From: a virus
Lineage: Duplodnaviria; Heunggongvirae; Uroviricota; Caudoviricetes
Strand: one strand, 5' to 3'
IMG/VR virus record: IMGVR_UViG_3300011242_000001
Span: 50,439-114,438 of that record
Length of the DNA: 64,000 bases
The notes under the pieces are model-generated. The model saw nothing but the letters and a program-made list of their open reading frames with translations. It was not told the origin of the DNA and ran no database searches. Numbering within the stretch: the stretch's first letter is position 1; each line of letters opens with the position of its first letter. Made by a program: the position numbers and the translations under genes. Positions 2,803 to 33,763 of the stretch are shown one piece after another.

Positions 2803-4104
2803 TTATTTTTTCATTGCGATACGTTGGCTATCGGTTTTGACAATCTTTTTATAATTGTCTTGTAAATCTTTTAAGCGAGTAACTGCTTTTTCGCGCTCAC
2901 TCACACCCTGTTGCTGAATTTGAATTACTTCATTAACAGTTTTAATTAATGTACTTTGTACATATTCTAAAGTTGATACGTCAATAACTGAACGTTGGTT
3001 TGCTTTAGCCGTACTTACAGAGTTGGTGTGCAATAAGTCTGCATTACGTTTAAGAATTTCATTTGTAGCGTCATCAATAGTATTCGCTAATTGAACACTA
3101 TTCTTTTGCTCATTCAATGAAATCGCAAGTGTAATCTGGTTTTTCCATGCTGGAATCGTGATATTTTTGATTGCATAGAACTTATCAACAAGCATCAAAT
3201 TGTTTGCTTGAATAATACGAATCATTGGCAATGTCTGTAATGCTGATTGCTGTAATACATGAAGATCGTGTAAACGCTTTTCTAAGTTATTGCAAACATG
3301 GTTCAAGTCATAAATACGTTGAATTACATTTTGATCTTGTTGATTGCCATTAGATAAATCTTTAATTTCGTCTTTAAGTTCTTGTAACTTTAAATGGCCT
3401 GCTGCAATATGTAGACCTAATGAACGATAATCGTTGTTTACATTGTCAAACATATTATCGAGTAAGTGGACACGATTAGTAAGGCCAGATTGATTGGTTT
3501 CAATTTCACTTACAAGCGCTTTAATTTGTTCTTCTGTAGTATTAAATTTAGTTAAGAAATTATTACGAGCTTTTTCAACAGATTTAAATAATCCACCAAT
3601 AATTGGTAAGCGCGAAAATGAGCTTTGTTTACCAATAAAGTTGCTGCTATTAATACCTTTAGCTACATGAATAACCTGGTTTAATTTTTCGCCGGTTTGA
3701 TCAATGTCTTTATTGTTTACTAAACCCAAAATTTCTGATGTACAGTCATTTGTAGCTGATGAAATATCTTTACCATATTCAGCAACTGCTAATGCATCCA
3801 TTGGACCTAATTTATTTTTTAGTTCCATTACATCTTTTACATCAGCGTCAGTCAAGCCAAGATCAACCAAATTCAATTTTGATGCAGCGAGATCCAAATT
3901 TTTAATTGCCGGCAATGCAGGTTCTTCATTTACAGATTTAAGAATTTGATTATTTACATCTTGCTGAATAGCCGATGGCTCGTCTGCAACAATAACGTCC
4001 ACTTTACCAGTCTCAGATTGAGACATAGCAGCGCGTTCTTTCAATAGTTTTTCTAGTAAAGCGTCGGTTTGTTCTTTATTAAGATCGTTAATTGATGATA
4101 CCAT
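2803..4104 (-). CDS. putative TelA/KlaA-like (toxic anion resistance family) protein
   Basis: 433-aa, largely alpha-helical/coiled-coil protein with overall resemblance to the TelA family; assignment from memory is tentative. Confidence 0.35.
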   Translation of the reverse strand: MVSSINDLNKEQTDALLEKLLKERAAMSQSETGKVDVIVADEPSAIQQDVNNQILKSVNEEPALPAIKNLDLAASKLNLVDLGLTDADVKDVMELKNKLGPMDALAVAEYGKDISSATNDCTSEILGLVNNKDIDQTGEKLNQVIHVAKGINSSNFIGKQSSFSRLPIIGGLFKSVEKARNNFLTKFNTTEEQIKALVSEIETNQSGLTNRVHLLDNMFDNVNNDYRSLGLHIAAGHLKLQELKDEIKDLSNGNQQDQNVIQRIYDLNHVCNNLEKRLHDLHVLQQSALQTLPMIRIIQANNLMLVDKFYAIKNITIPAWKNQITLAISLNEQKNSVQLANTIDDATNEILKRNADLLHTNSVSTAKANQRSVIDVSTLEYVQSTLIKTVNEVIQIQQQGVSEREKAVTRLKDLQDNYKKIVKTDSQRIAMKK

Positions 4105-5888: not shown

Positions 5889-6353
5889 TCATTTTGATAA
5901 ATCCCGTGATAGTTTAGCCATTTTATTTTTAAAAGCCATATCATAAAGAGCTTCCGACGTTTGACCATATTTTTTAGTAATTAACGTATGAGCCTTAATA
6001 ATTGCTTCTTCATAAGTATAACCGCCACAATCAAGGTCTGTATCATGGGTTAAAGCAAACTTACGACCTTTTGTATATGCATATTCACTACTAGGAACGC
6101 TCCAATCAATTTCAAATGGGACTAATACTTCTACCCAATATTGTAAGGTATCATTTAAAGATGCATCATCTTCAATGCGATTAGTTTTTTTGCAAATAAG
6201 ATGAGGATCAATTAAAACAATAATTGTCTCTTCTGGATAAGCAAACAGAAATTTGTGGTGATTTTTAAGTTCCCACTCTTTTTTAATAAAGTCTTTAATT
6301 TCATCAATAGTCATAATAAAAAAGCTCGCTAAAATGTATATACATAATAACAA
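5889..6353 (-). CDS. hypothetical protein (true start possibly the internal Met MTIDEIK)
   Basis: 154-aa ORF. Confidence 0.4.
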   Translation of the reverse strand: MLLCIYILASFFIMTIDEIKDFIKKEWELKNHHKFLFAYPEETIIVLIDPHLICKKTNRIEDDASLNDTLQYWVEVLVPFEIDWSVPSSEYAYTKGRKFALTHDTDLDCGGYTYEEAIIKAHTLITKKYGQTSEALYDMAFKNKMAKLSRDLSK

Positions 6354-6372
6354 GCTTTTTTATATTTGTAAA

Positions 6373-6924
6373 CTATTTTACTTCAATGTACGGCAACTTT
6401 GAATAATATAGAATAGGTTTACCAGTTGTATCTTTAGTATAGCAATCTTGTTGCCAATCCCAACCTGCCAAAAACCATTTGTCTTCGCCAGTATCGGACA
6501 ATGAATTAAAGCCAATTGTAGTTGTATATAAATCATCCTGGGTACCAACATTTGATGATTCAACTAATACAATATATTGTTCACCATCTTTAATTGAATC
6601 ATCAATGTATCGCCATCCCATCTTCAAATATGTAGTAATTACAGCTTGTCGATGTTGATCATGCATGCCTTGTAATTTAGTATGCATGAGCTTAATAATT
6701 TCCATTGAAACATTATCAGGGTGATCTTTTGAAATATCAATGCCATTAACTAATTCAGGTACCCATTCGGTTGACCATAAATTATATTCATTTCGAATAT
6801 CCTGACCTAATGACGAATGTAATGAAATAAGATCATCACTATCTAATGCTCCCAATTGAATTTTTGCATTATCAGACAATTTATCAATTAAGCCATCTGC
6901 AATTTTATTAATATCTACTTTCAT
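6373..6924 (-). CDS. hypothetical protein
   Basis: 183-aa ORF. Confidence 0.5.
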   Translation of the reverse strand: MKVDINKIADGLIDKLSDNAKIQLGALDSDDLISLHSSLGQDIRNEYNLWSTEWVPELVNGIDISKDHPDNVSMEIIKLMHTKLQGMHDQHRQAVITTYLKMGWRYIDDSIKDGEQYIVLVESSNVGTQDDLYTTTIGFNSLSDTGEDKWFLAGWDWQQDCYTKDTTGKPILYYSKLPYIEVK

Positions 6925-7040
6925 ATTATTCCTAATTCATCATATATTGCGCTGTATCACACTATATCAAAGATGGTTGCGGTTTGTATACATTTTTATT
7001 AAGTATTCCATATGGATCAACCAGGATCAAATATGGAATA

Positions 7041-7412
7041 CTATTCTGGCTTCCAAAGCTTAGCAAACTTTAATACGTTAGGTATATTGCCAGTGCTTAC
7101 GGGTAATGTAACTAAACAAGATTTTTTACCACCCAAGGTATTATTTTCATGACCGGCGTAACATACTAATTGGGATTGTATTTTATTAAATTCTTTTTGA
7201 TTTACCTTAACAACCACCTTTTTAAATGATTCTGTTTTCCATTTTGAATATGTATCGGGAATATTTGTATTACCTAAACAATTAAATTCAATCGAATCTA
7301 AAAAATAGCTATCAGCCGCTAATACAGCATGCGCTACTAAAGTGGGTACCATATAAGATGGGAATTCATCTAATACAGCAATATACATTTTTAAATATGG
7401 TTCTTGGCTCAT
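7041..7412 (-). CDS. hypothetical protein
   Basis: 123-aa ORF; AAGGAGA RBS upstream on the minus strand; start abuts the 5' end of structured element A. Confidence 0.5.
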   Translation of the reverse strand: MSQEPYLKMYIAVLDEFPSYMVPTLVAHAVLAADSYFLDSIEFNCLGNTNIPDTYSKWKTESFKKVVVKVNQKEFNKIQSQLVCYAGHENNTLGGKKSCLVTLPVSTGNIPNVLKFAKLWKPE

Positions 7413-7432
7413 TCTTAATTTCTCCTTTATTT

Positions 7433-8045
7433 GGGTATGACTCGACCTTTATATCCGTGATTTGAGTAAAATTAAATTAAATTTAATAATAAAATTAAGA
7501 ATGATAATAAAAACTTAAAAATATTATTAAAGTAATTACTAATGATGATATACATATGGAAAAATGATAAGAAAACATATTTACAATAATTTGTACTTTG
7601 ATTCTCTATTTCTACAATGAGAAATCAATTTAAATCAGGGCTGGTCCAACAATACCAATATCACCGTGTAGAGCGGCTTATTACAAATTTACATCTCGTC
7701 TCTCGACACATTCTTTGCCGTAGAATGTATATCCCCTAAGAATTTGTTCCGGCTTCTTAGGCACCAAACTATATACTAGTTCAAATGGATCAATCAAATA
7801 TCCATCCTATCAGTTATTATAGAGTTATATTCTATGACGAATATATTGAAACTACGGTTGGTGTGGCGGATTCTAAACTATCTATGCAATTATATAATTT
7901 AGAATCTGTTCTTTACCTCTATAAAAGATTATATTATCTGATTAAAGTAAAGTCTTCGTTTCAAAGTGGTTGATTACCGTATAACCATGATTGGATCACG
8001 TCGCCTGTTGTTAGGTCAAACATTGCAGGCACTTTATTTTTTAAT
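7433..8045 (+). ncRNA. ORF-free conserved structured element A (candidate novel ncRNA or cis element); homologous to the inverted copy at 36598-37298
   Basis: About 610 nt with no conserved ORF. It shares multiple blocks with the reverse complement of 36598-37298: tatgactcNacctttatatccgtgatt, ccaacaat, cacattctttgccgtagaatgtatatcc, ctaaga..cggc.tcttag.cacc, ctatgacga..gttggtNtggcgg, gtggttgattaccgtaNaacca, ggatcac. Perfect hairpin ACATTCT-ttgccgt-AGAATGT. Covarying stem CTAAGA(A)/(T)TCTTAG versus CTAAGAG/CTCTTAG. Confidence 0.45.
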
Positions 8046-8170
8046 TGCAAAGATATTATCAATCTTCATTCTTTTCTCTATTATTTCGCGCCCAAGAAAA
8101 GTAAGGCAGGCTGCAACTTAGGTTGAGACTTATTTATATTTTATATCACATTTGATTATATTTGTAAATA

Positions 8171-8197
8171 AAAAAACTCCCGAAGGAGTCTTTATTT
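8171..8197 (-). terminator. rho-independent terminator (hairpin ACTCC-cgaa-GGAGT with flanking A/T runs)
   Basis: Stem-loop plus T-run on the minus strand immediately after gene 8208..8465. Confidence 0.55.
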
Positions 8198-8207
8198 TAT
8201 AAAATCT

Positions 8208-8465
8208 TTAGTTATAAAATGGATCTTTCATTAATGCAATTAATAATGCGTTATGCTGATCAACCACTAAAAATGTTGTGAACGGTTGATATTCTCTATT
8301 ACATCGTGTAATAAAGTGACCAAACAAGCGTTCGCCTTCTTCGGCACCAAAAATGCTTTGGAATTTACGCAAATCCGATTTATATTGGAATTTAATAATT
8401 CTTCCATTAAATGAGCTCCAATTTCTTAGAACTGTTAATTCATCATTTGATAATTCATTAGACAT
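8208..8465 (-). CDS. hypothetical protein
   Basis: 85-aa ORF followed by a terminator. Confidence 0.45.
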   Translation of the reverse strand: MSNELSNDELTVLRNWSSFNGRIIKFQYKSDLRKFQSIFGAEEGERLFGHFITRCNREYQPFTTFLVVDQHNALLIALMKDPFYN

Positions 8466-8480
8466 ATAATTTACTCACTT

Positions 8481-8924
8481 TTAAACATAATAAACGACAA
8501 TTTCTAAATCTGGTGTAACTTCATTAATAATTTGTTGAATTGTAGCCCAATCACCGCCAGCAAGACCTGCACCAATACGAGGTATACATGCAGTTTTGCC
8601 TTTAAAGTCTTCATTTAATAATGCGAATCCTTTTCGAACAGCGTCATAATCTACTTGAATTTGATGTGTACCAAAATCATATTGTGTATATAAGTTAATT
8701 ACAGTACCAAATTCTGTTACAGCCATTGAATAAAGACCAAGTTTATTTTTTGTACCAATTGGAGTTTTACAATCTGCTTGATAAGCATTAGGGTATCTGT
8801 ATTTTACAATAGCTGCGATTCCACCTCCCATGGTATGGAAGCAATTACAACCATGTACTAGTATATCATATTCTTTCTTTTCAAATGGTACAAATAAGTT
8901 TTCTTTAATTTCAGCAACGATCAT
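8481..8924 (-). CDS. macro-domain protein (ADP-ribose binding/hydrolase, MacroD-like)
   Basis: Motifs VHGCNCFHTMGGGIAAIV and IPRIGAGLAGGDW match the macro-domain Gly-rich loops; start set at the internal Met MIVAEIK, which has an AGGAAA RBS. Confidence 0.6.
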   Translation of the reverse strand: MIVAEIKENLFVPFEKKEYDILVHGCNCFHTMGGGIAAIVKYRYPNAYQADCKTPIGTKNKLGLYSMAVTEFGTVINLYTQYDFGTHQIQVDYDAVRKGFALLNEDFKGKTACIPRIGAGLAGGDWATIQQIINEVTPDLEIVVYYV

Positions 8925-8982
8925 GTGTTTTTTCCTGGCCAAATATAATAATATATATAAGCAATTATATCGGAGATACATA

Positions 8983-9555
8983 GTGATTAAAATAGAAGAT
9001 TTTAAAAAAGAACATTCTACAAATATGAAAATGCTGAATAAGTATCTAAATGATGATTTAATGGGACCTATAGCAGAATGGATTATGGAAGAAAAAGGTA
9101 ATCCATTAGTTTGGATGGATCCTAACTATTATAATCAAATGCGAACTTTGGGTGGTCTTATTAGCATTTTACACAATATTCAACATGCTCTTGTGGATGA
9201 TGGAGAAATGTGCTTTCCAATTGTTGAAGGCGAGCAGCAAATTCGATTCATGGACAAATGGGATTATATTCGTACTATTGGCGAACCTGATGCATGGGCC
9301 GAAGATATTTATGACTTTATTGAAAATATCGAAATAATTCATCGTGAATGGTTACGCAATGCATTTGCGTTTGATGCGGCTGATATTGGGATTGAGTCTG
9401 CAATGGATCAATATTTATCACGATATGCAGACTTTGATCCAGCCTGGGGAACTGAGATTTTAACGCTAAAACGCATTCATATCAAAGCTAAGTTAAGAAA
9501 AAAATTACAATTAATAAATGAACGGAAGGCTAAAAATAATGATCCACAAGTATAG
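8983..9555 (+). CDS. hypothetical protein (start uncertain: GTG ~8983 with GGAG RBS, or ATG ~9025)
   Basis: ORF 8830..9555 overlaps the convergent macro gene at its 5' end, so a later start is more likely. Confidence 0.4.
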   Translation: MIKIEDFKKEHSTNMKMLNKYLNDDLMGPIAEWIMEEKGNPLVWMDPNYYNQMRTLGGLISILHNIQHALVDDGEMCFPIVEGEQQIRFMDKWDYIRTIGEPDAWAEDIYDFIENIEIIHREWLRNAFAFDAADIGIESAMDQYLSRYADFDPAWGTEILTLKRIHIKAKLRKKLQLINERKAKNNDPQV

Positions 9556-9904
9556 TTATGGCAAAGGATATAGCACTGTTGATATAGAAGTTTATGAAAA
9601 AGAACTTACTATTAAAAGTGATGAATACGGTTATTTCTTACAATTTTATAAAGGCGACGAATTCTTAAACATTCTTGAACTTATAGAAATTAACTTTGCT
9701 AAGAATGAATGGGATCAACATACAGAGACTTATTTTAAACATGAATTAGAAGCTTTTAAGATAGATTTTGATATAAATGTACCACATCATGCATATACTA
9801 TTCAAAGTCTTGCAGATGAAGATCATCGGTTATGTGTATCATTGAATGAATGGAATGAATTTTTAGCTACTTTATATACAATTCGTGAAGATTTATTCAG
9901 ATAA
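9539..9904 (+). CDS. hypothetical protein
   Basis: ATG with GGAAGG RBS; 121 aa. Confidence 0.4.
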   Translation: MIHKYSYGKGYSTVDIEVYEKELTIKSDEYGYFLQFYKGDEFLNILELIEINFAKNEWDQHTETYFKHELEAFKIDFDINVPHHAYTIQSLADEDHRLCVSLNEWNEFLATLYTIREDLFR

Positions 9905-9972
9905 TATATGTACTTATGTATGTACATTTGTTATAATGTATATACATTATAACAAAACACAAAGGTGTTAAA

Positions 9973-10308
9973 ATGACAGACTATCCTGAAGGAACAACCC
10001 ATAAAAATCCATGGTTAAATCGTTACGGTTCAACTTGTTTTGACTGGTTTAAGATTGATCAGGAAACTGGAGAAGTTTTCCAATGGTATATTCCGTATAT
10101 GGAACATCAATATCGATGGGCCCCACCTTTATCACAAATGGTTAGTCGCGAAACATGGCACAAGACTTTAATTCCAGTTGACCAGGAATGTAAATTGGAA
10201 CCAAAGCCTTGGCATAAAGCGTCATATTTAGCTGGTGGTATATCTAAAGCTTATGACCGACCAGAAAACCCTTATTACCCTAACAGTACAGGATATCAAG
10301 GAGATTAA
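9973..10308 (+). CDS. hypothetical protein (Trp/Pro-rich)
   Basis: 111-aa ORF; AAAGGTG RBS. Confidence 0.45.
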   Translation: MTDYPEGTTHKNPWLNRYGSTCFDWFKIDQETGEVFQWYIPYMEHQYRWAPPLSQMVSRETWHKTLIPVDQECKLEPKPWHKASYLAGGISKAYDRPENPYYPNSTGYQGD

Positions 10309-10685
10309 ATTTTCTTTTTCTTCTTTTTTGGTTTACTGAAATTAATTGATACTTCATTATCTTCAGTGGTGATAGTAAGTTTTTTAGATTTATCACTTTC
10401 ATAATAAATGGTACCTTCAGACGTTATATCTAATTTATTAGCTAGTGCTTGAAGGGCCGTTTTTATAATATTTTTATGACCTAAACCAGTTACTGACATT
10501 CTATTAATATAAAAAATATTTTCAACATTTGGATGTGTGCTATATGTTTGTATAGTTACACCGCGCTGTTCTAAAAAAATAAAAATATCTTCTAAATCAA
10601 TTATATCATATTCGCTTGATAAAAGTAATTCGTCATTACTTGCAAAATAAGTAGTTGGCCCTTTTAAGAAATTTGTATATCCCAT
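10305..10685 (-). CDS. hypothetical protein with Lys-rich C-terminus and possible HhH-like GLGHK motif
   Basis: 126-aa ORF. Confidence 0.45.
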   Translation of the reverse strand: MGYTNFLKGPTTYFASNDELLLSSEYDIIDLEDIFIFLEQRGVTIQTYSTHPNVENIFYINRMSVTGLGHKNIIKTALQALANKLDITSEGTIYYESDKSKKLTITTEDNEVSINFSKPKKKKKKI

Positions 10686-10687
10686 TA

Positions 10688-10987
10688 TTATTCCTCGATG
10701 TTCAAAATATCTATTAATAGAATCTTTTCATATATACTATGCTTTTCTATTGGAAATATACAAATATATTTTTCATTTTTATAATTTGTATAAATACCTT
10801 CACTAAATGATTCAAATAATTCTTTTGTAATTTGTAGATGTTCAAACTTTTGATTTAATTCCCAATCATTAAATTTGAGCATACTAGCCCAATGTAAATT
10901 TAATGATTTAAAATAATCTGATGATTCAATTAATGCAATATCGGTATTTATTTCTTCATACGAAATAATATAAAGTACGTATTCCAT
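10688..10987 (-). CDS. hypothetical protein
   Basis: 99-aa ORF adjacent to the previous gene. Confidence 0.4.
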   Translation of the reverse strand: MEYVLYIISYEEINTDIALIESSDYFKSLNLHWASMLKFNDWELNQKFEHLQITKELFESFSEGIYTNYKNEKYICIFPIEKHSIYEKILLIDILNIEE

Positions 10988-11049
10988 TCATTTGCCTCGA
11001 CTACTTATATATTCTATTATTTATTCATTAAATGTATGTGCCTAAAATA

Positions 11050-11082
11050 GCTGTACAAACAAATATAAAAATATATAATTCG
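11050..11082 (+). promoter_or_regulatory. promoter-like TGTACA...AAATATAAAAATATATAAT upstream of polB part B
   Basis: TGTACA -35-like element and TATAAT -10-like element; member of a recurring motif. Confidence 0.3.
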
Positions 11083-11104
11083 ATTAAGAATGACAGGAGC
11101 AAAC

Positions 11105-12352
11105 ATGAATACTCAAATTTCAGATTTGAAATTTCAAATAACACAGCTGCAGCAATCTATTAAAGATTTAGATGATGAGTGTGAACGATATTCAGCAATG
11201 GAACAAGCCGTAAAGATTGTTTTAAACGGTGGATATGGAGCATTAGGGGCAGCTGCATTTAGATGGTATGACGAAACAATTGCGGAAGGTATTACTGCAA
11301 CCGGCCGTGTCGGAATACAATATATTACTAAAAAAATTAATGAATTTGTAAATGAGAAAGCCGGAACAGCCGGCATCGACTATGTTGTAAGTTCTGATAC
11401 AGATTCAGTTTATTTTGAAGTTGACGCAATTGTAAAACATAGATGGCCCGAAGTTACCGATAAACAGCAAATTACTGATTTAGTAAATGAATTTGCTGAA
11501 AATGAAGCTGGACCATATATTGATCAATGCTATAAAGATCTTTCCGATTATCTAAATTGCGACGTAAATTTATTAGATATGAAGCGCGAAGCAATTGCTG
11601 ATACATTTATTATCAGGGCCAAGAAAAATTATATCATGCGAGTATTTGATAATGAAGGAATTCGTTATGCTGATCCGTATTATAAAATGATGGGTATTGA
11701 AGTTGTTCGTACATCTCACCCACAAATGATTCGTGACGCTTTAGAGGATACTTTAAAGATGGTAATTGAAGGATCAGTTGAACAAGTTCGATCATATGTA
11801 AAAGAATTTAAAGCAAAGTTTATGAATTCGCCATTAAATCAGATTGCTGCACCCCGCGGTATTTCCGATATTACAAAATATATGAATAGCGAAGATTATT
11901 CAATTAAAGAATTTGAATATGTTACTAATGAATTTGGTAATAAAGTTAAATCTAAAATTACTATTCCAATTCATGTAAGAGCTGCTATTAATTATAATTA
12001 CCTAGTTAATAAATATAAGTTATCAAATAAATTTGAATTTATTAAAAACGGTTCTAAAATTAAATTTTTGCCATTAAAAGAGCCGAATCCAATTAAGAGC
12101 CATGTAATTGGATTCATTGATAATATTCCAACTGAATTTGGTTTAGATGAGTTTATTGATAAAGAAGCTCATTTTAATAAAATGTTCATTAGTCCGCTAG
12201 AAACTTTCTTAATTTATAATGGATGGACAATCCAGGAAAATACCTTATTAGATATGTTCGGATCATCCGATATTGATATGGCGACAGCTGCAATTAATAC
12301 AAAGAAAAAGACAATAAAAAAAGTCGATAAAAAGACAACTTCATTGTTTTAA
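11105..12352 (+). CDS. 43: family-B DNA polymerase, C-terminal fragment (gp43 part B: fingers motif B, palm motif C, thumb)
   Basis: KIVLNGGYGALG (motif B, KxxxNSxYG) and VVSSDTDSVYFEV (motif C, DTDS) align to T4 gp43 INSLYGALGN...YGDTDSIYVS; GGAG RBS before ATG; N-terminal 40 aa heptad-like (QISDLKFQITQLQQSIKDLDDE). Confidence 0.85.
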   Translation: MNTQISDLKFQITQLQQSIKDLDDECERYSAMEQAVKIVLNGGYGALGAAAFRWYDETIAEGITATGRVGIQYITKKINEFVNEKAGTAGIDYVVSSDTDSVYFEVDAIVKHRWPEVTDKQQITDLVNEFAENEAGPYIDQCYKDLSDYLNCDVNLLDMKREAIADTFIIRAKKNYIMRVFDNEGIRYADPYYKMMGIEVVRTSHPQMIRDALEDTLKMVIEGSVEQVRSYVKEFKAKFMNSPLNQIAAPRGISDITKYMNSEDYSIKEFEYVTNEFGNKVKSKITIPIHVRAAINYNYLVNKYKLSNKFEFIKNGSKIKFLPLKEPNPIKSHVIGFIDNIPTEFGLDEFIDKEAHFNKMFISPLETFLIYNGWTIQENTLLDMFGSSDIDMATAAINTKKKTIKKVDKKTTSLF

Positions 12353-12356
12353 AAAA

Positions 12357-12378
12357 AGGTCTTCGGACCTTTTTTTAA
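12357..12378 (+). terminator. rho-independent terminator
   Basis: AGGTCTTCGGACCT hairpin followed by TTTTTTT. Confidence 0.6.
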
Positions 12379-12465
12379 TGTATACACTTAGTTTTATTGT
12401 ACAAATATAAAAAATAATAGTAAAATATGTTCATTGGATTAGTTCAATATAATTGATTATACATA

Positions 12466-12500
12466 TATGTACAAATATAAATTTTAATATGCCTATAATA
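12466..12500 (+). promoter_or_regulatory. promoter-like ATGTACAAATATAAATTTTAAT...TATAAT upstream of uvsX
   Basis: Nearly identical to GTGTACAAATATAAAATTTTAT at 18559-18581; TATAAT downstream. Confidence 0.3.
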
Positions 12501-12561
12501 AAAGCAAGCGTGTAACGATTATAAATAGATGTTTAATTTATAATTCGGAGCATATATAATT

Positions 12562-13644
12562 ATGTCATTATTGGCAAAGTTAAAGAAAAATTCAACTATT
12601 AAAATGTCAAACTCAATGGCCGACTCTAAATTCTTTAATGAAAAAGATGCAGTTACCACTGATTTGCCATTATTAAATCTTGCATTATCTGGTTCTATTC
12701 ATGGTGGTTTAAGCTCTGGCTTAACTGTTGTTGCAGCTCCAAGTAAACACTTTAAATCAAATATTTCGCTATTTATGGTAGCGGCGTATATGAAAAAATA
12801 CCCTGAATCAGTATGTTTATTTTACGATTCAGAATTTGGTTCACCACCTGATTACTTACATTCATTTGATATTGATCTTGACCGCGTATTACATACACCT
12901 GTTGCTACTGTTGAAGAATTACGTTCAGACTTAACAGTTCAGCTTGATAACATTGAACGTGGTAAAGATAAAGTCGTAATTTTTATTGACTCTATTGGTA
13001 ACTTGGCATCTAAAAAAGAAACCCAAGATGCATTAGATGGTAAAGAAAAAGCGGATATGACTCGTGCTAAAACGATTAAATCATTATTCCGTATTGCTAC
13101 ACCACAATTTATTTTGAAAGACATTCCATGTATCGTAATTAACCATACGATTGAAACAATGGAAATGTTCTCTAAAACAGTTATGACTGGTGGTACTGGT
13201 ATTTTGTATTCTGCAAATACAGTTCTATTTGTGACTAAAGCACAAGAAAAAGATGGTACTGATCTTGCTGGATTTAAGTTTACCTTGGTAGCTGAAAAAT
13301 CACGTGCTGTTAAAGAACGTTCTAAATTCCCTCTTATTGTTACTTTCGAAAAAGGTATTAATAAGTATTCTGGTATGCTTGAATTGGCATCTGATTTAGA
13401 CTTTATCAGAAAACCAAAAATGGGATGGTATTCTCGTGTAATTGACGGCGTACAAGAAGAAAAATTGTGGCGTGCTAAAGATACAAGCACAACAGAATTC
13501 TGGAATCCTATTTTCAACGATCCAGCATTTGATGATGCATGTAAAGCAAAATATCGTTTATCTTCAGGCGCGAAAGTTACCGAAGATAGTATCGAAGAAG
13601 AATATGAATCCGATCTCGATTATGTCGATGATATGGACTATTAA
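12562..13644 (+). CDS. uvsX: UvsX RecA-like recombinase
   Basis: Near-colinear match to T4 UvsX (SKFFNEKD, GGLSSGL, FYDSEFG, DSIGNLASKKETQDAL, MTRAKT.KSLFRI, WRAKDT); GGAG RBS. Confidence 0.9.
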   Translation: MSLLAKLKKNSTIKMSNSMADSKFFNEKDAVTTDLPLLNLALSGSIHGGLSSGLTVVAAPSKHFKSNISLFMVAAYMKKYPESVCLFYDSEFGSPPDYLHSFDIDLDRVLHTPVATVEELRSDLTVQLDNIERGKDKVVIFIDSIGNLASKKETQDALDGKEKADMTRAKTIKSLFRIATPQFILKDIPCIVINHTIETMEMFSKTVMTGGTGILYSANTVLFVTKAQEKDGTDLAGFKFTLVAEKSRAVKERSKFPLIVTFEKGINKYSGMLELASDLDFIRKPKMGWYSRVIDGVQEEKLWRAKDTSTTEFWNPIFNDPAFDDACKAKYRLSSGAKVTEDSIEEEYESDLDYVDDMDY

Positions 13645-20747: not shown

Positions 20748-21941
20748 ATGAACGTTGTTGTAATCGGCGCCAACTATGGTGATGAAGGTAAAGGTCGTAC
20801 TGTTGATTTTCTTGCCAAAGACTTTTGTGGGCTTGAAAATCGACCTACTCTGAATGTAAGATTTTCTGGTTCAAATAATGCAGCACATACCGTATGGCAT
20901 AATAATACATCATTTGTATTTCATATGTTAGGGGCTGCTTCTTTTCGTGGGCATCCAACATATTTGAGTCAACATGTTGTTGTTGATTTTGTTGCACTAG
21001 AAACAGAAATTAATGAATTTGAAAAAATTACTGGATTTAAACCAGTCGTTTATGTCGATCCGCGGTGCCGTATTAATCTGCCATATGATGTAATGAAAAA
21101 CCGTATTAAAGAAATTCTTAAAGGTAATGATAAACACGGTTCAACTGGTAATGGTCTAAATGAAACTATTGACCGGCATCAACGTCTTCCAATTTTAGCA
21201 GGTACATTTGAATTTGCATTACCTATGTTAATTCTCACACAAAGTGATTTTCAGCAATTTGTTGAAACTGAGTTAAAGGATATTGAATTAGAATATCGAC
21301 ATAAAGACTTTATTGAATTTTTATGTGAGAAAAATTCAGTATCGTTTATTTTTGATAAAATTAGACATATCCTTAATAATCATCCTCAAATTGTATGCGA
21401 TACACCAAATCTTAAAATTTATAACTGTATCTTTGAAGGGAGTCAAGGGTTAGCTTTAGATGAATATAGCAAATTTTTTCCTCATGTAACTCGTACACGT
21501 ACTGGTACAACAAATGTAATAGATTTATGCCGTGAGCATGATATTGTAATTGACAATGTATATTATGTATCACGACCGTATTTCAGCCGTCATGGTGCAG
21601 ACAAATACTTTGAAGAATTTGATAGAATTAGTGACGTTTATAACATTGTAGATGAAACTAATATACCAAATGACTGGCAAGATAATTTAAAATTTGGTAT
21701 TTTAAATGTAACTGAAATGGATGAACGTATTAATGATGACTTTAAAATCATTAAAAATTTATTCCCAAATGTAAATAAGCAGCTGGTGTTTACTTGTATG
21801 GATCAATGTGGCGGTGGGTCTGGTATTTATATTCGTAACGGTCGACTATATCAAACAAGCGATCTAATAAATTCATTAAATTTATATTATAGATTTAGTG
21901 ATATTAAACCAATCTTTTTTGATAATAAGGAAAATATATAA
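20748..21941 (+). CDS. adenylosuccinate synthetase (PurA) family homolog; candidate PurZ-like enzyme
   Basis: N-terminal NVVVIGANYGDEGKGRTVDFL matches the PurA P-loop GDEGKGK; GSNNAAHTV matches GGHNAGHT; FEGSQGLALDE matches FEGAQGTLLD; the C-terminal region is divergent; 397 aa. Confidence 0.65.
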   Translation: MNVVVIGANYGDEGKGRTVDFLAKDFCGLENRPTLNVRFSGSNNAAHTVWHNNTSFVFHMLGAASFRGHPTYLSQHVVVDFVALETEINEFEKITGFKPVVYVDPRCRINLPYDVMKNRIKEILKGNDKHGSTGNGLNETIDRHQRLPILAGTFEFALPMLILTQSDFQQFVETELKDIELEYRHKDFIEFLCEKNSVSFIFDKIRHILNNHPQIVCDTPNLKIYNCIFEGSQGLALDEYSKFFPHVTRTRTGTTNVIDLCREHDIVIDNVYYVSRPYFSRHGADKYFEEFDRISDVYNIVDETNIPNDWQDNLKFGILNVTEMDERINDDFKIIKNLFPNVNKQLVFTCMDQCGGGSGIYIRNGRLYQTSDLINSLNLYYRFSDIKPIFFDNKENI

Positions 21942-22834: not shown

Positions 22835-24769
22835 ATGTTTTATACATCAGTTGTAAAAATGGGAAATAATATTATTCACCGTTATATCAAAGATGGAAAG
22901 CGTTATCAAGAAATTATTAAGAATTTTGATTATGATTTATATGTGCGAAGCGAATATTCGCGAGACGCTTTAGATGTACATAAAAACCATTTAAAACGTT
23001 ATAATTTTGACAATATTTATGATATGAGTCAATTTATTAATGAAAATGGTAATGACAATGTTTATGGTAATACTGATCCAGTAACACAATTTATAGCAAA
23101 AACATATCCTGATGAAATTAAATTAACTAATGATTATGTAGTTCTAAACTTCGATATTGAGACCGAACACGGCGAAGGCTTTATCAAATATAAAGACCCT
23201 CATATTATCCAGGTTCAAGAAGATAAAAATGAACCAATTAAAATGGCATTGGGTGAATTTAAAAAGATCGATCTAAATGTACATGAATATCATGTATATG
23301 ATGAAGAAAAAAAAGATTGGCTTCTTTATGAAAATTCATGTTATGCGCCGCAACAACTAGGATTCCCAGACCCAAATTTAGCTTTATACCAGGTAATGTC
23401 GGTATCATTAATTTCATCTTTAGAAAATATAATTTATGTATATGGTACTAAAGAATTTAAAGGTGCACGCACAATTGAAGGATCTGATTATACTATTCGT
23501 CATATTTATTGCGCAAATGAAAAAGAACTTTTAGTTAAATTTATTCAGAAATGGCGTGAAATTAAACCTGATATTTTAACTGGCTGGAATGTTGAAGGAT
23601 TCGACGTACCATATATTATTAATCGTATTGTGCGTGTACTTGGTAAAAAGTTTGCTAATATGCTTAGCCCATTTGCTAATGAATCACAAAACTGTATTCG
23701 CGAACGCCAAAAAGAAGATGCCGTTTATTATAGTATTTCAGGTATTACCATTTACGATTACCTGTCTGTATATAAAAAGTTCTCGCGTGAAAAACGTGAA
23801 AGCTATAAATTAGACTGGATTGGTAAAGTAGAAGTAGACCATCAAAAGATTTCATATGACGAATATGATAATTCACTAATGAAATTATGGGAATACGATT
23901 ATGATAAATTCATTCTATATAATGCTATCGATACATTAATTGTTAATAAGCTAGATAAGAAATTAAAGTTTATTAATCTTGCAATTACGATTGCTCATAT
24001 TACTAAATCAGATTTAAGTGATGCTTTAGGTACCATTAAAATTTGGGATAATATGATTTATAACTTACTACGTAAGCGCGATATTCAAATTCCACCAAAT
24101 ATCAAACAAGAAAAATCTAAAGAATTCTTGGGTGCATTTGTAAAAGAGCCATTACTTGGTCGACATGGTTGGACTTTAACATTCGATTTAACATCGCTAT
24201 ATCCAAGTATTATTCGTATGTTAGGTATGTCACCGGAAACACTTATTGATCGTGAAATTGGTAATGATTTCACTGCAAATAGTGCCGTGCGAAAAGTTAT
24301 TAAATCCAATATGGATATTGTTGCCAATATTATTATGGACGGTGAATTTGGCACAGATAATGAATTATCAGAAGATTTATATATTCTTAAACGATTTGAA
24401 TCAGCCGATGTTAATAAAATTAAATCATTAGATAAAAATACAATGATTTATGTTTTACAAGAATTACGTCGGGCAGATGAATATTATAATTCTGGTCATA
24501 ATCATATTCATGGTGTTAAAACAGTATTAGAAAATGTTGAAAACTTTATTAATATGGTGACCGATCTTTCTTGGGCTAAAGAAAAAAATGTCACTGTAGC
24601 AGGTAATGGTTCAACATATGATAAATCCACTGAAGGCGTAATTCCTGAAGCGATGACTCACTTATTCAATTACCGTAAACTACTTAAGAATAAGATGAAG
24701 GAAGAAAAGAAAAAATTACAGCTAAAAATTGAAGAGCTACATAAGTTAGAATCACAGCTAACATCTTAA
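22835..24769 (+). CDS. 43: family-B DNA polymerase, N-terminal fragment (gp43 part A: 3'-5' exonuclease domain and palm motif A)
   Basis: MFYTSVVKMGNNIIHRYI matches T4 MKEFYISIETVGNNIVERYI; FDIETE exo I; LTGWNVEGFDVPYIINRI matches LTGWNVESFAIPYVYNRI; GAFVKEPLLG...FDLTSLYPSIIR matches GAFVKEPIP...FDLTSLYPSIIR (motif A); ends with a coiled-coil-like tail KKKLQLKIEELHKLESQL; GGAG RBS. Confidence 0.85.
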   Translation: MFYTSVVKMGNNIIHRYIKDGKRYQEIIKNFDYDLYVRSEYSRDALDVHKNHLKRYNFDNIYDMSQFINENGNDNVYGNTDPVTQFIAKTYPDEIKLTNDYVVLNFDIETEHGEGFIKYKDPHIIQVQEDKNEPIKMALGEFKKIDLNVHEYHVYDEEKKDWLLYENSCYAPQQLGFPDPNLALYQVMSVSLISSLENIIYVYGTKEFKGARTIEGSDYTIRHIYCANEKELLVKFIQKWREIKPDILTGWNVEGFDVPYIINRIVRVLGKKFANMLSPFANESQNCIRERQKEDAVYYSISGITIYDYLSVYKKFSREKRESYKLDWIGKVEVDHQKISYDEYDNSLMKLWEYDYDKFILYNAIDTLIVNKLDKKLKFINLAITIAHITKSDLSDALGTIKIWDNMIYNLLRKRDIQIPPNIKQEKSKEFLGAFVKEPLLGRHGWTLTFDLTSLYPSIIRMLGMSPETLIDREIGNDFTANSAVRKVIKSNMDIVANIIMDGEFGTDNELSEDLYILKRFESADVNKIKSLDKNTMIYVLQELRRADEYYNSGHNHIHGVKTVLENVENFINMVTDLSWAKEKNVTVAGNGSTYDKSTEGVIPEAMTHLFNYRKLLKNKMKEEKKKLQLKIEELHKLESQLTS

Positions 24770-24774
24770 AAAAA

Positions 24775-24796
24775 GGACCGCAAGGTCCTTTTTTAT
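24775..24796 (+). terminator. rho-independent terminator
   Basis: GGACC-gcaa-GGTCC plus TTTTTT. Confidence 0.6.
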
Positions 24797-24855
24797 TGTA
24801 CTTACAATTATATACGCGATACAATTTATATAAATTAATGATAGAGATCATACAA

Positions 24856-25494
24856 ATGAATATTCCGCACGAAGTATATCAATTATTAGCAATTCTTAAA
24901 GAATATAATCCGCTATTGGTTGGCGGATGTGTGCGTGACTATTTAATGGGTAATGAGCCACATGATTATGATTTAGTTGTGCCACATGTACATCACCAAA
25001 TGCTGCTTGAAATAATTGAAGCTGGATGGCAAACTAAATTAACCGAAAATAATGACACAGAAATTTGGAATGTAACCAAAAAATTTCCGGTATATGATAC
25101 TATCTATTATAAAGGTTCACCTATCAATTATGTTAAAGGCGAAAAATCTTATGTAATTGAGTTGCTTTCATATAGAGGCGAAACATTAAGCGATGATGCA
25201 TCTAATCGCGACTTAACAGTTAATTCGTTATATTATGATTATTTTAATGATAAAATATTTGACCCGACTGGTCGTGGATTGGAAGATATTCAAAATAAAG
25301 TTGTTCGCTTTAATAATAAGCAAGTAGTGGAAAAAGATCCATTGCGTATTATGAGAGCATATCGTTTCGCTAAAAAATTTAATTTTACTATTGAAGATAA
25401 AAGCCTAAAACTATGTAGAAATGGATTTGATTCAATGATTAAAGAAATAAGCCCAACCAGAATACTTAAAGAAATTGAAAAACTTTGTCTATAA
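24856..25494 (+). CDS. class II CCA-adding / poly(A) polymerase-type nucleotidyltransferase, head+neck domains only
   Basis: LLVGGCVRDYLMGNEPHDYDLVV matches GGAVRDxLLG..xDxD; NRDLTVNSLYYD...FDPTGRGLEDI...DPLRIMRAYRFA matches RRDLTINALA...IDPxxGLxDL...EDPLRxLRxxRFA; no HD body domain; start taken at ATG rather than the track's TTG inside the terminator. Confidence 0.6.
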   Translation: MNIPHEVYQLLAILKEYNPLLVGGCVRDYLMGNEPHDYDLVVPHVHHQMLLEIIEAGWQTKLTENNDTEIWNVTKKFPVYDTIYYKGSPINYVKGEKSYVIELLSYRGETLSDDASNRDLTVNSLYYDYFNDKIFDPTGRGLEDIQNKVVRFNNKQVVEKDPLRIMRAYRFAKKFNFTIEDKSLKLCRNGFDSMIKEISPTRILKEIEKLCL

Positions 25495-25509: not shown

Positions 25510-26082
25510 ATGTTAACTTTTGATCAAACATTTGAAGATGGCGATGATGTACAATATGTATTAAAGGATAACTCATATCATTGTGGCGTTGGTACTGTAA
25601 AGTTTTCTAATAATGAATTCGCCGGTATTATTGTAAATAGTAAAATATTTTATGCACCACATAAAATTTATGCTATGCATCACCATAGCCGTGACTTTGA
25701 TTTAGGTCGTTATCTTAAAAAAATTGAACTTCCTATTAAAGCACAAGAATATATTTTTGATGAATATAAAAATGTAGATACATCTAAATTACAATTAATG
25801 GACTTTGAATCCGACTATATTCATCATACACCGTTTCAGCGGGTATTATTTGAACAGTCATATTGGGATAAATCTCATTTAGAACATGTCAATTGGTTTG
25901 CTCCATCTGCATGTTATTACCCAAAAGGATGGTATAACCTGGGTGGTGAAAGAAGTGAAGAAAGCGATACTATTGGCGAACAAGTTGATTGGCAGTGGCA
26001 AGCGTGGCGAAATGCACTTTTACAAAATATGTGGCTCGACACTATTAAAGTAGAAAAAGTTACATATCAGGTATTAGTATGA
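25510..26082 (+). CDS. hypothetical protein
   Basis: GGAG RBS; 190 aa; overlaps the downstream gene (ATGA). Confidence 0.45.
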   Translation: MLTFDQTFEDGDDVQYVLKDNSYHCGVGTVKFSNNEFAGIIVNSKIFYAPHKIYAMHHHSRDFDLGRYLKKIELPIKAQEYIFDEYKNVDTSKLQLMDFESDYIHHTPFQRVLFEQSYWDKSHLEHVNWFAPSACYYPKGWYNLGGERSEESDTIGEQVDWQWQAWRNALLQNMWLDTIKVEKVTYQVLV

Positions 26083-26522
26083 AAAATATTGATGTTAGAA
26101 ATTTTAATTTTAAAGTTAAAAATTATTCAATTCATAATGCTATTCAACAAATAGATAATAAAGAACTGTTATTGCAATATTATAATGGTAAAAAATCCAC
26201 TGATTGGGATAATGTTCAAAAAAGCAAATATATTGAATCTATTCTAATTCGGGCGCCTGTTACACCCATTATTTTATATAATGACTTTAATAATCATATA
26301 GTAATTGATGGCCTTAATCGATTAAATGCTTTATATGAATATATGAATAATGAATTCGAACTTACAGGTTTGGATTTTTTGTTGGAGTTTAATAATAATA
26401 AATATTCTGATTTTGGCCGAGCATTCCAACGGCGCATTGAAGAAACTCAAATAATTATTCATGTCATAGAATGTTACAATGAGAATGGATTAGCAAATAT
26501 ATTAATAAATAGATATTTTTAA
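26079..26522 (+). CDS. DUF262 / ParB-like nuclease-domain protein (N-terminal GmrSD-type domain)
   Basis: APVTPIILYNDFNNHIVIDGLNRLNALYEY resembles the DUF262 core (PIP..IDGQQRLTAL); 147 aa. Confidence 0.45.
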   Translation: MKNIDVRNFNFKVKNYSIHNAIQQIDNKELLLQYYNGKKSTDWDNVQKSKYIESILIRAPVTPIILYNDFNNHIVIDGLNRLNALYEYMNNEFELTGLDFLLEFNNNKYSDFGRAFQRRIEETQIIIHVIECYNENGLANILINRYF

Positions 26523-28069: not shown

Positions 28070-28630
28070 ATGAGTAATATTAGCGCATCATTATTATATT
28101 CAGCAATGACATTTTTTAAGAACGCTGGATATCATTTTATTACTGTTCCAATGTTAATCGATGAAGATGTTATTCGCCTTACATTACCACCTGATCGATT
28201 ACCAAAATTTCATAACAATAAATGTTATGTTGGAAGTGCTGAACAATCAATTTACCAACTTATTAAAGAAGGTAAAGATTTACCTCCTAAATTATTAGCT
28301 ATTACACCATGCCAACGCGACGAAATGGTTCTTGATGAATTACATCAAGAAATATTTTTAAAAATTGAGTTGGCGTGTACTGATAATACTATTACATATC
28401 GTGATATTGCAAATGATGTAATGAATTTTTATAGTCAATTTACAGATAAAGCAAAAATTGTTGATTTTGTAGACTTTGATAATAGCTGCGATATCGAAAT
28501 TGGTGGTATCGAAGTTGGTAGTTATGGACAGCGTGAGTATAAAGGCCGCACTATTCATTTTGGAACAGGTGTAGCATTACCGCGTTTAGCTCAAGCACTT
28601 AATAAACTAATGGTTAATGAAAATGAATAA
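28070..28630 (+). CDS. minimal class II aminoacyl-tRNA-synthetase-like catalytic core (AsnA/EpmA-like ligase)
   Basis: YHFITVPMLIDE (motif 1-like), CQRDEMVLDELHQEIFLKIEL (motif 2-like FRxE...H.EF..E), HFGTGVALPRL (motif 3-like GxGxGxxRL); 186 aa. Confidence 0.45.
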   Translation: MSNISASLLYSAMTFFKNAGYHFITVPMLIDEDVIRLTLPPDRLPKFHNNKCYVGSAEQSIYQLIKEGKDLPPKLLAITPCQRDEMVLDELHQEIFLKIELACTDNTITYRDIANDVMNFYSQFTDKAKIVDFVDFDNSCDIEIGGIEVGSYGQREYKGRTIHFGTGVALPRLAQALNKLMVNENE

Positions 28631-28829
28631 TCATAGAATTATTAGATTTTTAAAAGTATATTCTATTTTTAATGGTGGTATATATGATGAGTCGACAAAA
28701 AATTTGTCGGACCATTATGAAATATATATAGATATATATCCAGAAGAATCTAATAATCCTAAACAAGAATTCGATCAAATGAAAGAATTTATATTAGCAA
28801 AAAAATGGAACACATATGCGAAACGTTAA
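28617..28829 (+). CDS. small hypothetical protein
   Basis: 70-aa ORF overlapping both neighbours. Confidence 0.3.
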   Translation: MKMNNHRIIRFLKVYSIFNGGIYDESTKNLSDHYEIYIDIYPEESNNPKQEFDQMKEFILAKKWNTYAKR

Positions 28830-29343
28830 ACAATTAATTACTAGTATTGAATCTGGTAATGATCACGAATATATTTATTTTTGGGGACACCAAGGTAGTA
28901 AAAAAGGTTGTTTAAGCCAATGGTTTGAATCAAGTTTTGTTATTAATGGTGTAACATATAAAACAGCTGAACATTGGATGATGGCTCAAAAAGCCAGACT
29001 ATTCGGCGATGCCACATTAGCAAATCAAATTGTACAATGCAGACACCCGCGTGATGCAAAACAATTAGGGCGGGCCGTTAGAAAATTCAATAATGATATT
29101 TGGAATAAACATAAATTTGCATATGTTGTCGATGGTAATATCGCTAAATTTCAGCAAAATCCTTCACTAAAGAAATTTTTATTATCTACTGGTAATAAAG
29201 TGATTGTAGAGTCATCTCCTGTTGATTCTATTTGGGGTGTTGGTTTGCATATGACAAATCCTGATATTAATAATCCTACTAAATGGAAAGGCGAAAATTT
29301 ATTAGGATTTGCTTTGATGGAAGTTCGGGAACAATTAAAATGA
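28816..29343 (+). CDS. NADAR (YbiA-like, DUF1768) domain protein
   Basis: FWGHQ...SQWF...TAEHWMMAQKARLFGD...LGRAVRKF...SPVDSIWGVG...GENLLGFALMEVR matches the YbiA/NADAR pattern along its length. Confidence 0.65.
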   Translation: MRNVKQLITSIESGNDHEYIYFWGHQGSKKGCLSQWFESSFVINGVTYKTAEHWMMAQKARLFGDATLANQIVQCRHPRDAKQLGRAVRKFNNDIWNKHKFAYVVDGNIAKFQQNPSLKKFLLSTGNKVIVESSPVDSIWGVGLHMTNPDINNPTKWKGENLLGFALMEVREQLK

Positions 29344-32914: not shown

Positions 32915-32946
32915 AAAAAAAAGGACCGCAAGGTCCTTTTTTTATG
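32915..32946. terminator. bidirectional rho-independent terminator (GGACC-gcaa-GGTCC)
   Basis: Hairpin flanked by an A8 run and a T9 run between convergent genes. Confidence 0.6.
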
Positions 32947-33511: not shown

Positions 33512-33763
33512 TTACTTATCGCTAAAGTGTTCAGCGATATATGATTTTAAATCTTCATTATCATCACATATATAAGTATCAAGATGTTTTTCACCTTTAA
33601 AGAGAATACATTCATATTCTCCTTTGTCAAATTCAGTAATATATAAAGAATGTGTGGAATTAGTAATTAAAGTTGCTTTACCAGTATGTACTTTTGCGGT
33701 GCTAGGTACTGCAGATTTAATAGCCGAAGTTGTAATTTCATTTAGGAAGTTAGTGAAGCTCAT
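33512..33763 (-). CDS. putative capsid-targeted internal protein (CTS family), 83 aa
   Basis: N-terminus MSFTNFLNEITT. Confidence 0.5.
   Translation of the reverse strand: MSFTNFLNEITTSAIKSAVPSTAKVHTGKATLITNSTHSLYITEFDKGEYECILFKGEKHLDTYICDDNEDLKSYIAEHFSDK

Follow-up and report, generated by a model that had tools for sequence, protein, structure and literature searches.

A Gln-type macrodomain of the T4 Tk.4/AdfM family in an uncultured T4-like phage, a candidate DNA thymidine ADP-ribosylglycohydrolase

Introduction

DarT-driven reversible ADP-ribosylation of DNA is an active front of the arms race between phages and bacteria. A 64,000-nucleotide stretch of DNA from a virus of the Caudoviricetes (IMG/VR record IMGVR_UViG_3300011242_000001, positions 50,439 to 114,438), here called the window, encodes on its minus strand a small macrodomain protein, hereafter the macro protein. 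The locus raises the question of which ADP-ribose linkage this enzyme would act on, and in which conflict. A preliminary description, made from the sequence alone, had pointed to two Gly-rich macrodomain loops, joined the gene with a NADAR gene into an ADP-ribose-processing toolkit, and proposed that the two remove ADP-ribose marks, counter DarT or Thoeris defences or tune Alt/Mod-like enzymes of the phage itself. In this study, we show that the macro protein belongs to the T4 Tk.4/AdfM family, and we propose, with a probability of about 60%, that it is a DNA thymidine ADP-ribosylglycohydrolase serving as an orphan antitoxin against DarT2-type defence.

Results

The macro protein is a predicted single-domain macrodomain

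We compared the macro protein with profile, sequence and structure databases. The results showed that its Pfam Macro (PF01661) score of 23.9 bits narrowly exceeded the cut-off of 22 (E=4.3e-5), over positions 1-117 of the 118 in the profile, and that it matched PHROG 335 at E=1.2e-52. Database homologues numbered 407 at E<=1e-5, many with a precomputed PF01661 match. By tblastn, matches were present in 2,624 of 50,697 GenBank phage records, T4 tk.4 included, the best being from Acinetobacter phages (49% identity). The AlphaFold2 model, built on an alignment of 61 homologues, had a predicted local distance difference test score (pLDDT) of 94.2 and a predicted template modelling score of 0.90; its lowest-confidence stretch was block 81-90, the loop after Q81 (pLDDT 75). 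The top 50 Foldseek matches in the PDB were all macrodomains or macrodomain-derived designs (probability 1.00), led by TARG1, DarG macrodomains, Poa1p and SCO6735, with template modelling (TM) scores of 0.69-0.79. Both loops of the preliminary description lie where it had quoted them (HTMGGGIAAIV, residues 30-40; IGAGLAGGDW, residues 117-126), and Pfam, PHROG 335 and the model agree on the domain. These results indicate that the macro protein is a single-domain macrodomain of the ALC1/TARG1-like class, as judged from profiles and the predicted structure.

The macro protein is a full-length homologue of T4 Tk.4

BLASTP aligned T4 Tk.4 with the macro protein over its full length (38% identity over 153 columns, E=6e-26). 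The two proteins are of equal size, consist of a single domain and share the motifs HGCNCFHTMG.G, YTQ and PRIGAG..G.W, and each belongs to a T4-like (Straboviridae-type) genome that carries a NADAR gene elsewhere. They differ in location, tk.4 lying between vs and tk whereas the macro gene lies between a DUF6794/TelA block and a C-terminal DNA polymerase fragment, and the companion NADAR is of another subfamily than T4 AdfN. In T4, tk.4 was the single significant gene from a transposon library on a DarTG2 host, a clean tk.4 knockout sensitised the phage to DarTG2, and the gene was renamed adfM, for anti-DarT factor Macrodomain (bioRxiv 10.1101/2025.11.20.689424). Enzymatic removal of ADP-ribose from DNA by Tk.4 was inferred, not demonstrated, by those authors (bioRxiv 10.1101/2025.11.20.689424). 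The T4 GenBank record still labels tk.4 'conserved hypothetical protein'. The full-length homology and the DarTG2 sensitivity of the knockout strengthen the proposal that the macro protein removes ADP-ribose and may counter DarT, while nothing was found in support of either Thoeris countering or the tuning of the phage's own Alt/Mod enzymes.

The active site is of the Gln type

In family alignments of 53 and 61 sequences, G25, N27, C28, G35, D51, K61, G63, N77, Y79, Q81, G118, G120 and G124 were invariant, and H24, C26, F29, G33, P115, L121, A122, G123, D125 and W126 were at least 90% conserved. N27, G35, G118, G120 and G124 aligned with the equivalent residues of BT1257, SCO6735, DarG and Poa1p. 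The conservation of the Gly-rich and Asn residues, on which the macrodomain assignment had been made to depend, was thus borne out, N27 and the loops being invariant or nearly so and matching those of solved macrodomains.

We then placed the catalytic column by HMMER alignments and an independent MAFFT alignment, which gave the same result. For MAFFT, the fragments of BT1257, SCO6735, DarG and Poa1p were taken from the PDB profile-search alignments, TARG1 was entered by hand, and PhiKZ gp104 was a verified translation of the DNA given in PMC13309987. Q81 of the macro protein shared a column with SCO6735 Gln85, DarG Lys80 and TARG1 Lys84. This column holds Gln in BT1257, SCO6735 and T4 Tk.4, Lys in Mycobacterium tuberculosis DarG, PhiKZ gp104 and TARG1, and Ser in Poa1p. 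N27 aligned with SCO6735 Asn27, and the diphosphate loop PRIGAGLAGGDW was essentially that of SCO6735 and BT1257 (PRIGCGLAGG[T/K]W), unlike the DarG loop PPLGVGNGGLDW. Together, the alignments place the active site with the Gln type of SCO6735 and BT1257, not with the Lys type of DarG and TARG1.

For SCO6735 of Streptomyces coelicolor, cleavage of thymidine-linked ADP-ribose from DNA and rescue of Escherichia coli from DarT have been reported (Hlousek-Kasun et al., PMC9411070). Its Gln85 is essential, since Q85A and Q85E were inactive, and N27S was nearly inactive, Asn27 holding Gln85; a water-mediated mechanism without a catalytic Lys was proposed (PMC9411070). The macro protein resembles SCO6735 (PDB 5E3B) and BT1257 (PDB 2FG1) in having Gln at the Lys position and the conserved His and Asn of H-x-C-N, and its bacterial homologues, like these two, are stand-alone genes not linked to DarT. 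It differs from them in overall identity (25-27%), in its invariant Gly25 in place of Val25 and in a second conserved Cys (CNC); SCO6735 and BT1257 are moreover bacterial housekeeping or stress genes, not phage genes. The loop after the catalytic residue, which in SCO6735 and BT1257 is about 5 residues longer than in DarG and TARG1, has 13-14 residues in those two, 8 in T4 Tk.4 and 11 in the macro protein, where it falls in the low-confidence model block.

The same residues bear on whether the macro protein is an enzyme at all. It could instead bind ADP-ribose without catalysis, or inhibit DarT stoichiometrically by binding; the family does lack the Lys on which catalysis by DarG and TARG1 depends, and the inactive Q85A mutant of SCO6735 is still able to inhibit DarT in vitro through interaction (PMC9411070). 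However, the Gln and Asn required in SCO6735 are invariant across 61 diverse homologues and the Gly loops are kept, a pattern typical of an enzyme, and a single 147-residue domain has no DarT-binding C-terminal domain. We therefore consider a purely binding role very improbable.

The macro protein is distinct from DarG, TARG1 and PhiKZ gp104

The macro protein falls in one fold class with the DarG macrodomain of DarTG2 (PDB 5M3I, 5M31/5M3E, 7OMU; Foldseek TM 0.73-0.77) and shares with it the conserved Asn and the two Gly loops. Unlike DarG, it and all 61 aligned homologues carry Gln81 in place of Lys80, and its loop reads GAGLAGGDW rather than GVGNGGLDW. It also lacks the C-terminal DarT-binding domain, and its gene has no adjacent darT, its neighbours being small genes of unknown function. 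DarG was the only family of NCBIfam and PADLOC that it matched, in the macro-domain part only; the NCBIfam model scored 38.5 bits against a cut-off of 250, over profile positions 11-146 of 338. Despite these differences, the macro protein and DarG probably catalyse the same reaction, thymidine de-ADP-ribosylation in single-stranded DNA, against the same opponent, DarT2.

Human TARG1/OARD1 (PDB 4J5Q-S) was the top Foldseek match (TM 0.79). In contrast to the macro protein, it has a Lys84/Asp125 dyad, whose positions are occupied by Gln81 and Ala122 in the alignment with the hand-entered TARG1 sequence. PhiKZ gp104, which is also named AdfM, is a stand-alone phage macrodomain that counters DarTG2 and de-ADP-ribosylates DNA in vitro (PMC13309987). 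Unlike the macro protein, to which it is 23% identical (E=1e-6), gp104 is Lys-type ('FPTK') with a DarG-like loop ('GCANGGLDF'). By these alignments, the name AdfM covers two sublineages, the Gln-type T4 Tk.4 and the Lys-type PhiKZ gp104, which would differ in mechanism.

On this evidence, we file the macro protein in the Tk.4/AdfM family and describe it as predicted to work like SCO6735. We did not file it in the SCO6735 subclass or as a DarG, because Val25 is replaced by Gly and the DarG features are absent.

Small soluble ADP-ribose derivatives are unlikely to be the main substrate

The best single-sequence PDB match of the macro protein was yeast Poa1p (PDB 6LFQ-6LFU; E=8e-8), an ADP-ribose 1''-phosphate phosphatase of the same macrodomain class with a common H-x-C-N-C ... 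GGGIA motif. This match raises the alternative that the enzyme processes small soluble derivatives, namely ADP-ribose-1''-phosphate, a by-product of RNA repair on which it would act as a Poa1p-like phosphatase, O-acetyl-ADP-ribose or NAD-derived immune signals. The family goes under the name 'phosphatase' or 'O-acetyl-ADP-ribose deacetylase' in PHROG 335 and in many GenBank records. The window also has, at other places, tRNA-related genes (a HisRS-like PHROG and a CCA/poly(A) polymerase head domain), and Iyer et al. favoured small-molecule substrates for phage Macro and NADAR proteins (PMC9503650). However, when the family profile was searched against the PDB, Poa1p (5e-11) ranked below BT1257 (2e-17), SCO6735 (8e-15) and M. 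tuberculosis DarG (3.6e-12), followed by TARG1 (6e-10). Poa1p further differs in having Ser, not Gln, in the catalytic column and a long insertion that is absent from the macro protein. Pfam scans of the window's open reading frames (ORFs) detected no KptA/Tpt1 or 2H phosphoesterase family, and the 'phosphatase' labels were passed on by annotation and do not come from tests. DarTG2 sensitivity is the one genetic phenotype known for a family member (bioRxiv 10.1101/2025.11.20.689424). We therefore regard a mainly small-molecule role as unlikely.

No ADP-ribosyltransferase was found in the window

A Pfam scan of the 97 ORFs of at least 70 residues in the window detected no ADP-ribosyltransferase family. 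A tblastn search of the window with T4 ModA, ModB and the first 501 residues of Alt gave nothing better than E=0.24, a sensitivity at which very divergent transferases could escape. At this sensitivity, the earlier remark that the window holds no obvious ADP-ribosyltransferase stands.

This result bears on a further alternative, in which the macro protein reverses protein or RNA ADP-ribosylation made by host transferases or by phage Alt/Mod-like enzymes encoded outside the window. TARG1 and Poa1p de-modify proteins, and T4-like phages commonly encode Alt, ModA and ModB, as in the T4 annotation. SCO6735, for its part, strips ADP-ribose from auto-modified PARP1 (PMC9411070) and from uracil in RNA (PMC13036486). 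Against this, the 64-kb window yielded no transferase, no protein or RNA phenotype has been reported for any family member, and tk.4 emerged as the sole significant gene of the T4 screen specifically under DarTG2 (bioRxiv 10.1101/2025.11.20.689424). We accordingly give little credence to protein or RNA as the main target.

The companion NADAR is of the YbiA type

The NADAR gene reported in the preliminary description was recovered by Pfam and PHROG (Table 1); its product would be the toolkit's second hydrolase, acting on ADP-ribose or N-glycosides. The YbiA-type model TIGR02464 of NCBIfam matched its product at 169.8 bits against a cut-off of 73.7, and the protein carries the YbiA-marker Glu (IVESSP, within IVESSPVDSIWGVG), assigned by eye rather than by structural alignment. 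The subfamily marker is Glu in YbiA, Asp in the BC4488 type and His in T4-like phage NADARs (Schuller et al., PMC11543638). T4 NADAR AdfN (gp30.3) counters DarTG1 (PMC11825919). We rejected the T4 AdfN type for the window protein, since BLASTP against gp30.3 gave E=35 and tblastn of gp30.3 against the window gave nothing. Among phages, its relatives occur mainly in myoviruses of Staphylococcus, Listeria, Bacillus and Enterococcus and in some Escherichia phages. As a YbiA/Glu-type protein without AdfN similarity, it appears less secure in an anti-DarT1 role than the macro protein does in an anti-DarT2 role. Johannesman et al. regarded the YbiA group as housekeeping (PMC11825919), and a Phytophthora NADAR that is not DarT-linked removes guanine-linked ADP-ribose in vitro (PMC11543638).

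The NADAR and macro genes lie about 20 kb apart on opposite strands, so they do not form an operon. In a related metagenomic phage contig, whose macro protein is 56% identical, a NADAR 45% identical lies 1.9 kb downstream of the macro gene on the same strand. Among myoviruses, Macro domains occur in 41% and NADAR in 27%, with co-occurrence above chance (Iyer et al., PMC9503650). The proposed pairing of macro and NADAR is thus real and recurs, and it had already been described for large myoviruses (PMC9503650).

Genes with RNA- or defence-related products were observed upstream of the NADAR gene. A 186-residue protein matching a PHROG annotated 'histidyl tRNA synthetase' is encoded by a gene that ends less than 200 bp before it. 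Farther upstream are genes for a protein with a CCA-adding/poly(A) polymerase head domain and for a small GmrSD_N (DUF262) protein, the latter assigned to its ORF by eye.

Proposed mechanism and its weak points

The fold, the family membership, the conserved residues and the correspondence to characterised enzymes are direct results, and from them we infer what the enzyme acts on, how it catalyses and that it counters defence. After infection, the macro protein would most likely bind the ADP-ribose that DarT2-type toxins place on thymidine of single-stranded phage DNA, and would hydrolyse the N-glycosidic bond, restoring replicable DNA. It would thereby be an orphan antitoxin in effect, with no need of contact with the toxin. 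The chemistry is probably Lys-independent, as for SCO6735, with Gln81, held by Asn27, positioning the distal ribose while an activated water cleaves. Less certainly, the YbiA-type NADAR could plausibly cover a different linkage, such as guanine-linked ADP-ribose.

TNTC is the target motif of DarT2-type toxins (PMC13309987). The window, at 29.7% G+C (70% A+T), contains 1,968 TNTC sites on both strands, with an observed/expected ratio of 0.89, which ranks 8th from the bottom among 64 gapped patterns. The window thus offers many DarT2-type targets, which are only mildly under-represented, and such weak avoidance is uninformative alone.

Several points weigh against DarT-modified DNA as the substrate. 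For Tk.4 the evidence is of a genetic kind and was reported in a preprint, and the macro protein shares no more than 38% identity with Tk.4. Val25, which is treated as specific to the SCO6735 subclass (Val or Ile after the conserved His) and was proposed to act via its backbone oxygen (PMC9411070), is an invariant Gly in the macro family; if the backbone oxygen is what acts, function need not be lost with Gly25. We sought a DarT gene beside two bacterial homologues of 40-45% identity (P0109 and P0092), and found none; both lie in ordinary, housekeeping chromosomal neighbourhoods, as SCO6735 does, so the family may originally have acted on something other than DarT-modified DNA. The activity of SCO6735 on protein-linked (PMC9411070) and RNA uracil-linked ADP-ribose (PMC13036486) means that DNA may be neither the sole nor the main substrate, and Iyer et al. 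argued that phage macrodomains process mainly small ADP-ribose derivatives (PMC9503650).

A wider proposal would have the Tk.4-type macrodomains derive from stand-alone Gln-type bacterial hydrolases of the BT1257/SCO6735 kind, not from a captured DarG, would have them act by a Lys-independent, water-mediated mechanism, and would make the YbiA/Glu-type NADAR their complement. We put this forward tentatively, as possible rather than probable.

The macro gene heads a two-gene unit

The features of the locus are listed in Table 1. The macro protein starts at MIVAEIKENLF, as does a metagenomic homologue (P0001, 147 residues, 97% identical), gene calls on homologue contigs agree, and T4 Tk.4 begins at the equivalent site (MIVKYIKGDI). 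An upstream-extended ORF from the mechanical list (8481..8981, 166 residues, ATG at 8981) was rejected, as homologues and gene calls begin at the shorter start. A plus-strand ORF overlapping the macro gene (8830..9555) was likewise set aside as an upstream-extension artefact, the real neighbour being the divergent 190-residue gene. The macro promoter presumably lies in the A+T-rich spacer, although a sigma-70 consensus scan found no minus-strand promoter upstream of the macro gene there.

Because the 85-residue ORF begins 15 nucleotides 3' of the macro stop and a same-strand terminator-like hairpin follows, the macro gene heads a small two-gene unit closed by that hairpin; the terminator scan gave 2 sites against 0.5 expected in shuffles. 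The two genes are probably co-transcribed. For the 85-residue product, Pfam gave nothing above cut-off and PHROG gave nothing at all. Its gene is not a conserved partner of the macro gene: it adjoins the macro gene in three close relatives (L006-L008), and a relative with a macro protein 77% identical (L016) has an unrelated-sized gene of 118 residues instead.

About 800 bp 3' of the unit hold only short plus-strand ORFs of 40-62 residues, where relatives call just one gene of 62 residues; whole-window tRNA and Rfam scans found no tRNA and no Rfam family in this region, and were likewise empty overall. The next minus-strand gene is kept beside the macro unit in close relatives and encodes a 123-residue protein that strongly matches PHROG 5822 (function unknown); its match to PTH2 peptidyl-tRNA hydrolase stays below threshold (20.6 bits, cut-off 23).

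Table 1. Positions of the features discussed, numbered from the first nucleotide of the window.
Feature	Position	Strand	Basis or remark
Macrodomain gene (T4 Tk.4/AdfM family)	8481..8924	-	Translation: uninterrupted frame, 147 codons + stop
Key residues of the macro protein			H24-G25-C26-N27-C28-F29; G33-G34-G35; Y79-T80-Q81; P115-R-I-G118-A-G120-L-A-G-G124-D-W126
Shine-Dalgarno-like AGGA	8933..8936	-	Read from sequence, 8 nucleotides 5' of the ATG at 8924
A+T-rich spacer, 58 bp	8925..8982		Separates macro gene (-) from divergent 190-residue gene (+); sequence reading
Divergent 190-residue gene, function unknown, GTG start	8983..9555	+	Same 190-residue neighbour called in related contigs
85-residue gene, function unknown	8208..8465	-	ORF list; 15 nucleotides 3' of macro stop
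Intrinsic-terminator-like hairpin	8172..8193	-	Terminator scan; 9-bp stem + T-run
Region of short ORFs	7413..8207	+	
123-residue gene, PHROG 5822	7041..7412	-	
NADAR gene, 175 residues, YbiA/Glu-type	28816..29343	+	Motif IVESSPVDSIWGVG; Pfam NADAR E=1.6e-56; PHROG 1017
'Histidyl tRNA synthetase' PHROG gene	28070..28630	+	
CCA/poly(A) polymerase head-domain and GmrSD_N proteins, among	24796..25494, 26079..26522	+	
DNA polymerase, C-terminal (palm/thumb) part	11090..12352	+	
DNA polymerase, N-terminal (exonuclease) part	22835..24769	+	
Adenylosuccinate-synthetase-family gene	20748..21941	+	
ORFs with shared start motif	32942..33415(-), 33512..33763(-), 33857..34588(+), 35995..36411(-), 45402..45800(+)		
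ORFs with shared start motif, remaining	46763..47410(+), 47410..47847(+), 49186..49935(-), 56245..56580(+), 58539..58775(-)		
Membrane-stress-type ORFs	2803..4104 (-), 30429..31031 (+), 31122..32903 (+)		Assigned from sizes and translations

Genome context

The window's UvsX shares 59% identity with its counterpart in T4-like phages of the Karamvirus type. By megablast, no GenBank phage matched positions 6000..13000, so there was no close sequenced relative from which annotation could be transferred. Relatives keep the synteny round the macro gene, which is flanked by the DUF6794 and TelA block in one direction and by UvsX and the DNA polymerase fragment in the other. The family-B DNA polymerase is apparently split into two parts about 10.5 kb apart, the C-terminal part lying upstream of the N-terminal part; the contig L016 has a similar stand-alone fragment of 379 residues beside UvsX. 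Just upstream of the N-terminal fragment lies a gene for a divergent protein of the adenylosuccinate synthetase family (Pfam Adenylsucc_synt 6.5e-36, profile positions 1-276 of 416; PHROG 1211), which scored far below the cut-offs of all NCBIfam PurA equivalogs and reached 40 bits against 300 for PurZ. This gene may point to a modified-purine pathway.

Ten ORFs share the start M-x-F-x-x-[FY]-[LI]-x-E (MKFADFLNEA and MNFEQFLNES are examples). Of its only 16 occurrences in the six-frame translation, 10 fall at ORF starts, and one of the ten proteins matches a PHROG annotated 'internal virion protein'. The motif resembles the capsid-targeting sequence of T4 internal proteins, MKTYQEFIAE, which is cleaved after [LI]-x-E. 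The shared start suggests that unusually many proteins are packaged in the head and injected. The window also carries membrane-stress-type genes that are unusual for a phage, namely a TelA-like gene (4.9e-80) and a YqiJ/NfeD-like gene followed by one for a flotillin/SPFH protein.

Discussion

The macro protein is a divergent new member of the T4 Tk.4/AdfM family. With the family, its probable substrate and the pairing of macro and NADAR genes all described before, the finding opens no new question. It adds to Tk.4/AdfM counter-defence a divergent member, at most 49% identical to any match in 50,697 GenBank phage records, from an uncultured and very A+T-rich T4-like phage. For annotation, it argues for replacing the inherited 'phosphatase' label on about 2,600 phage genes. 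If the breadth of SCO6735 on DNA thymidine-, RNA uracil- and protein-linked ADP-ribose were shared, a single small protein would let the phage overcome ADP-ribosylating defences of several classes. If the wider proposal holds true, a YbiA/Glu-type NADAR, of a subfamily so far viewed as housekeeping, would complement the macro protein on other N-glycosidic adducts.

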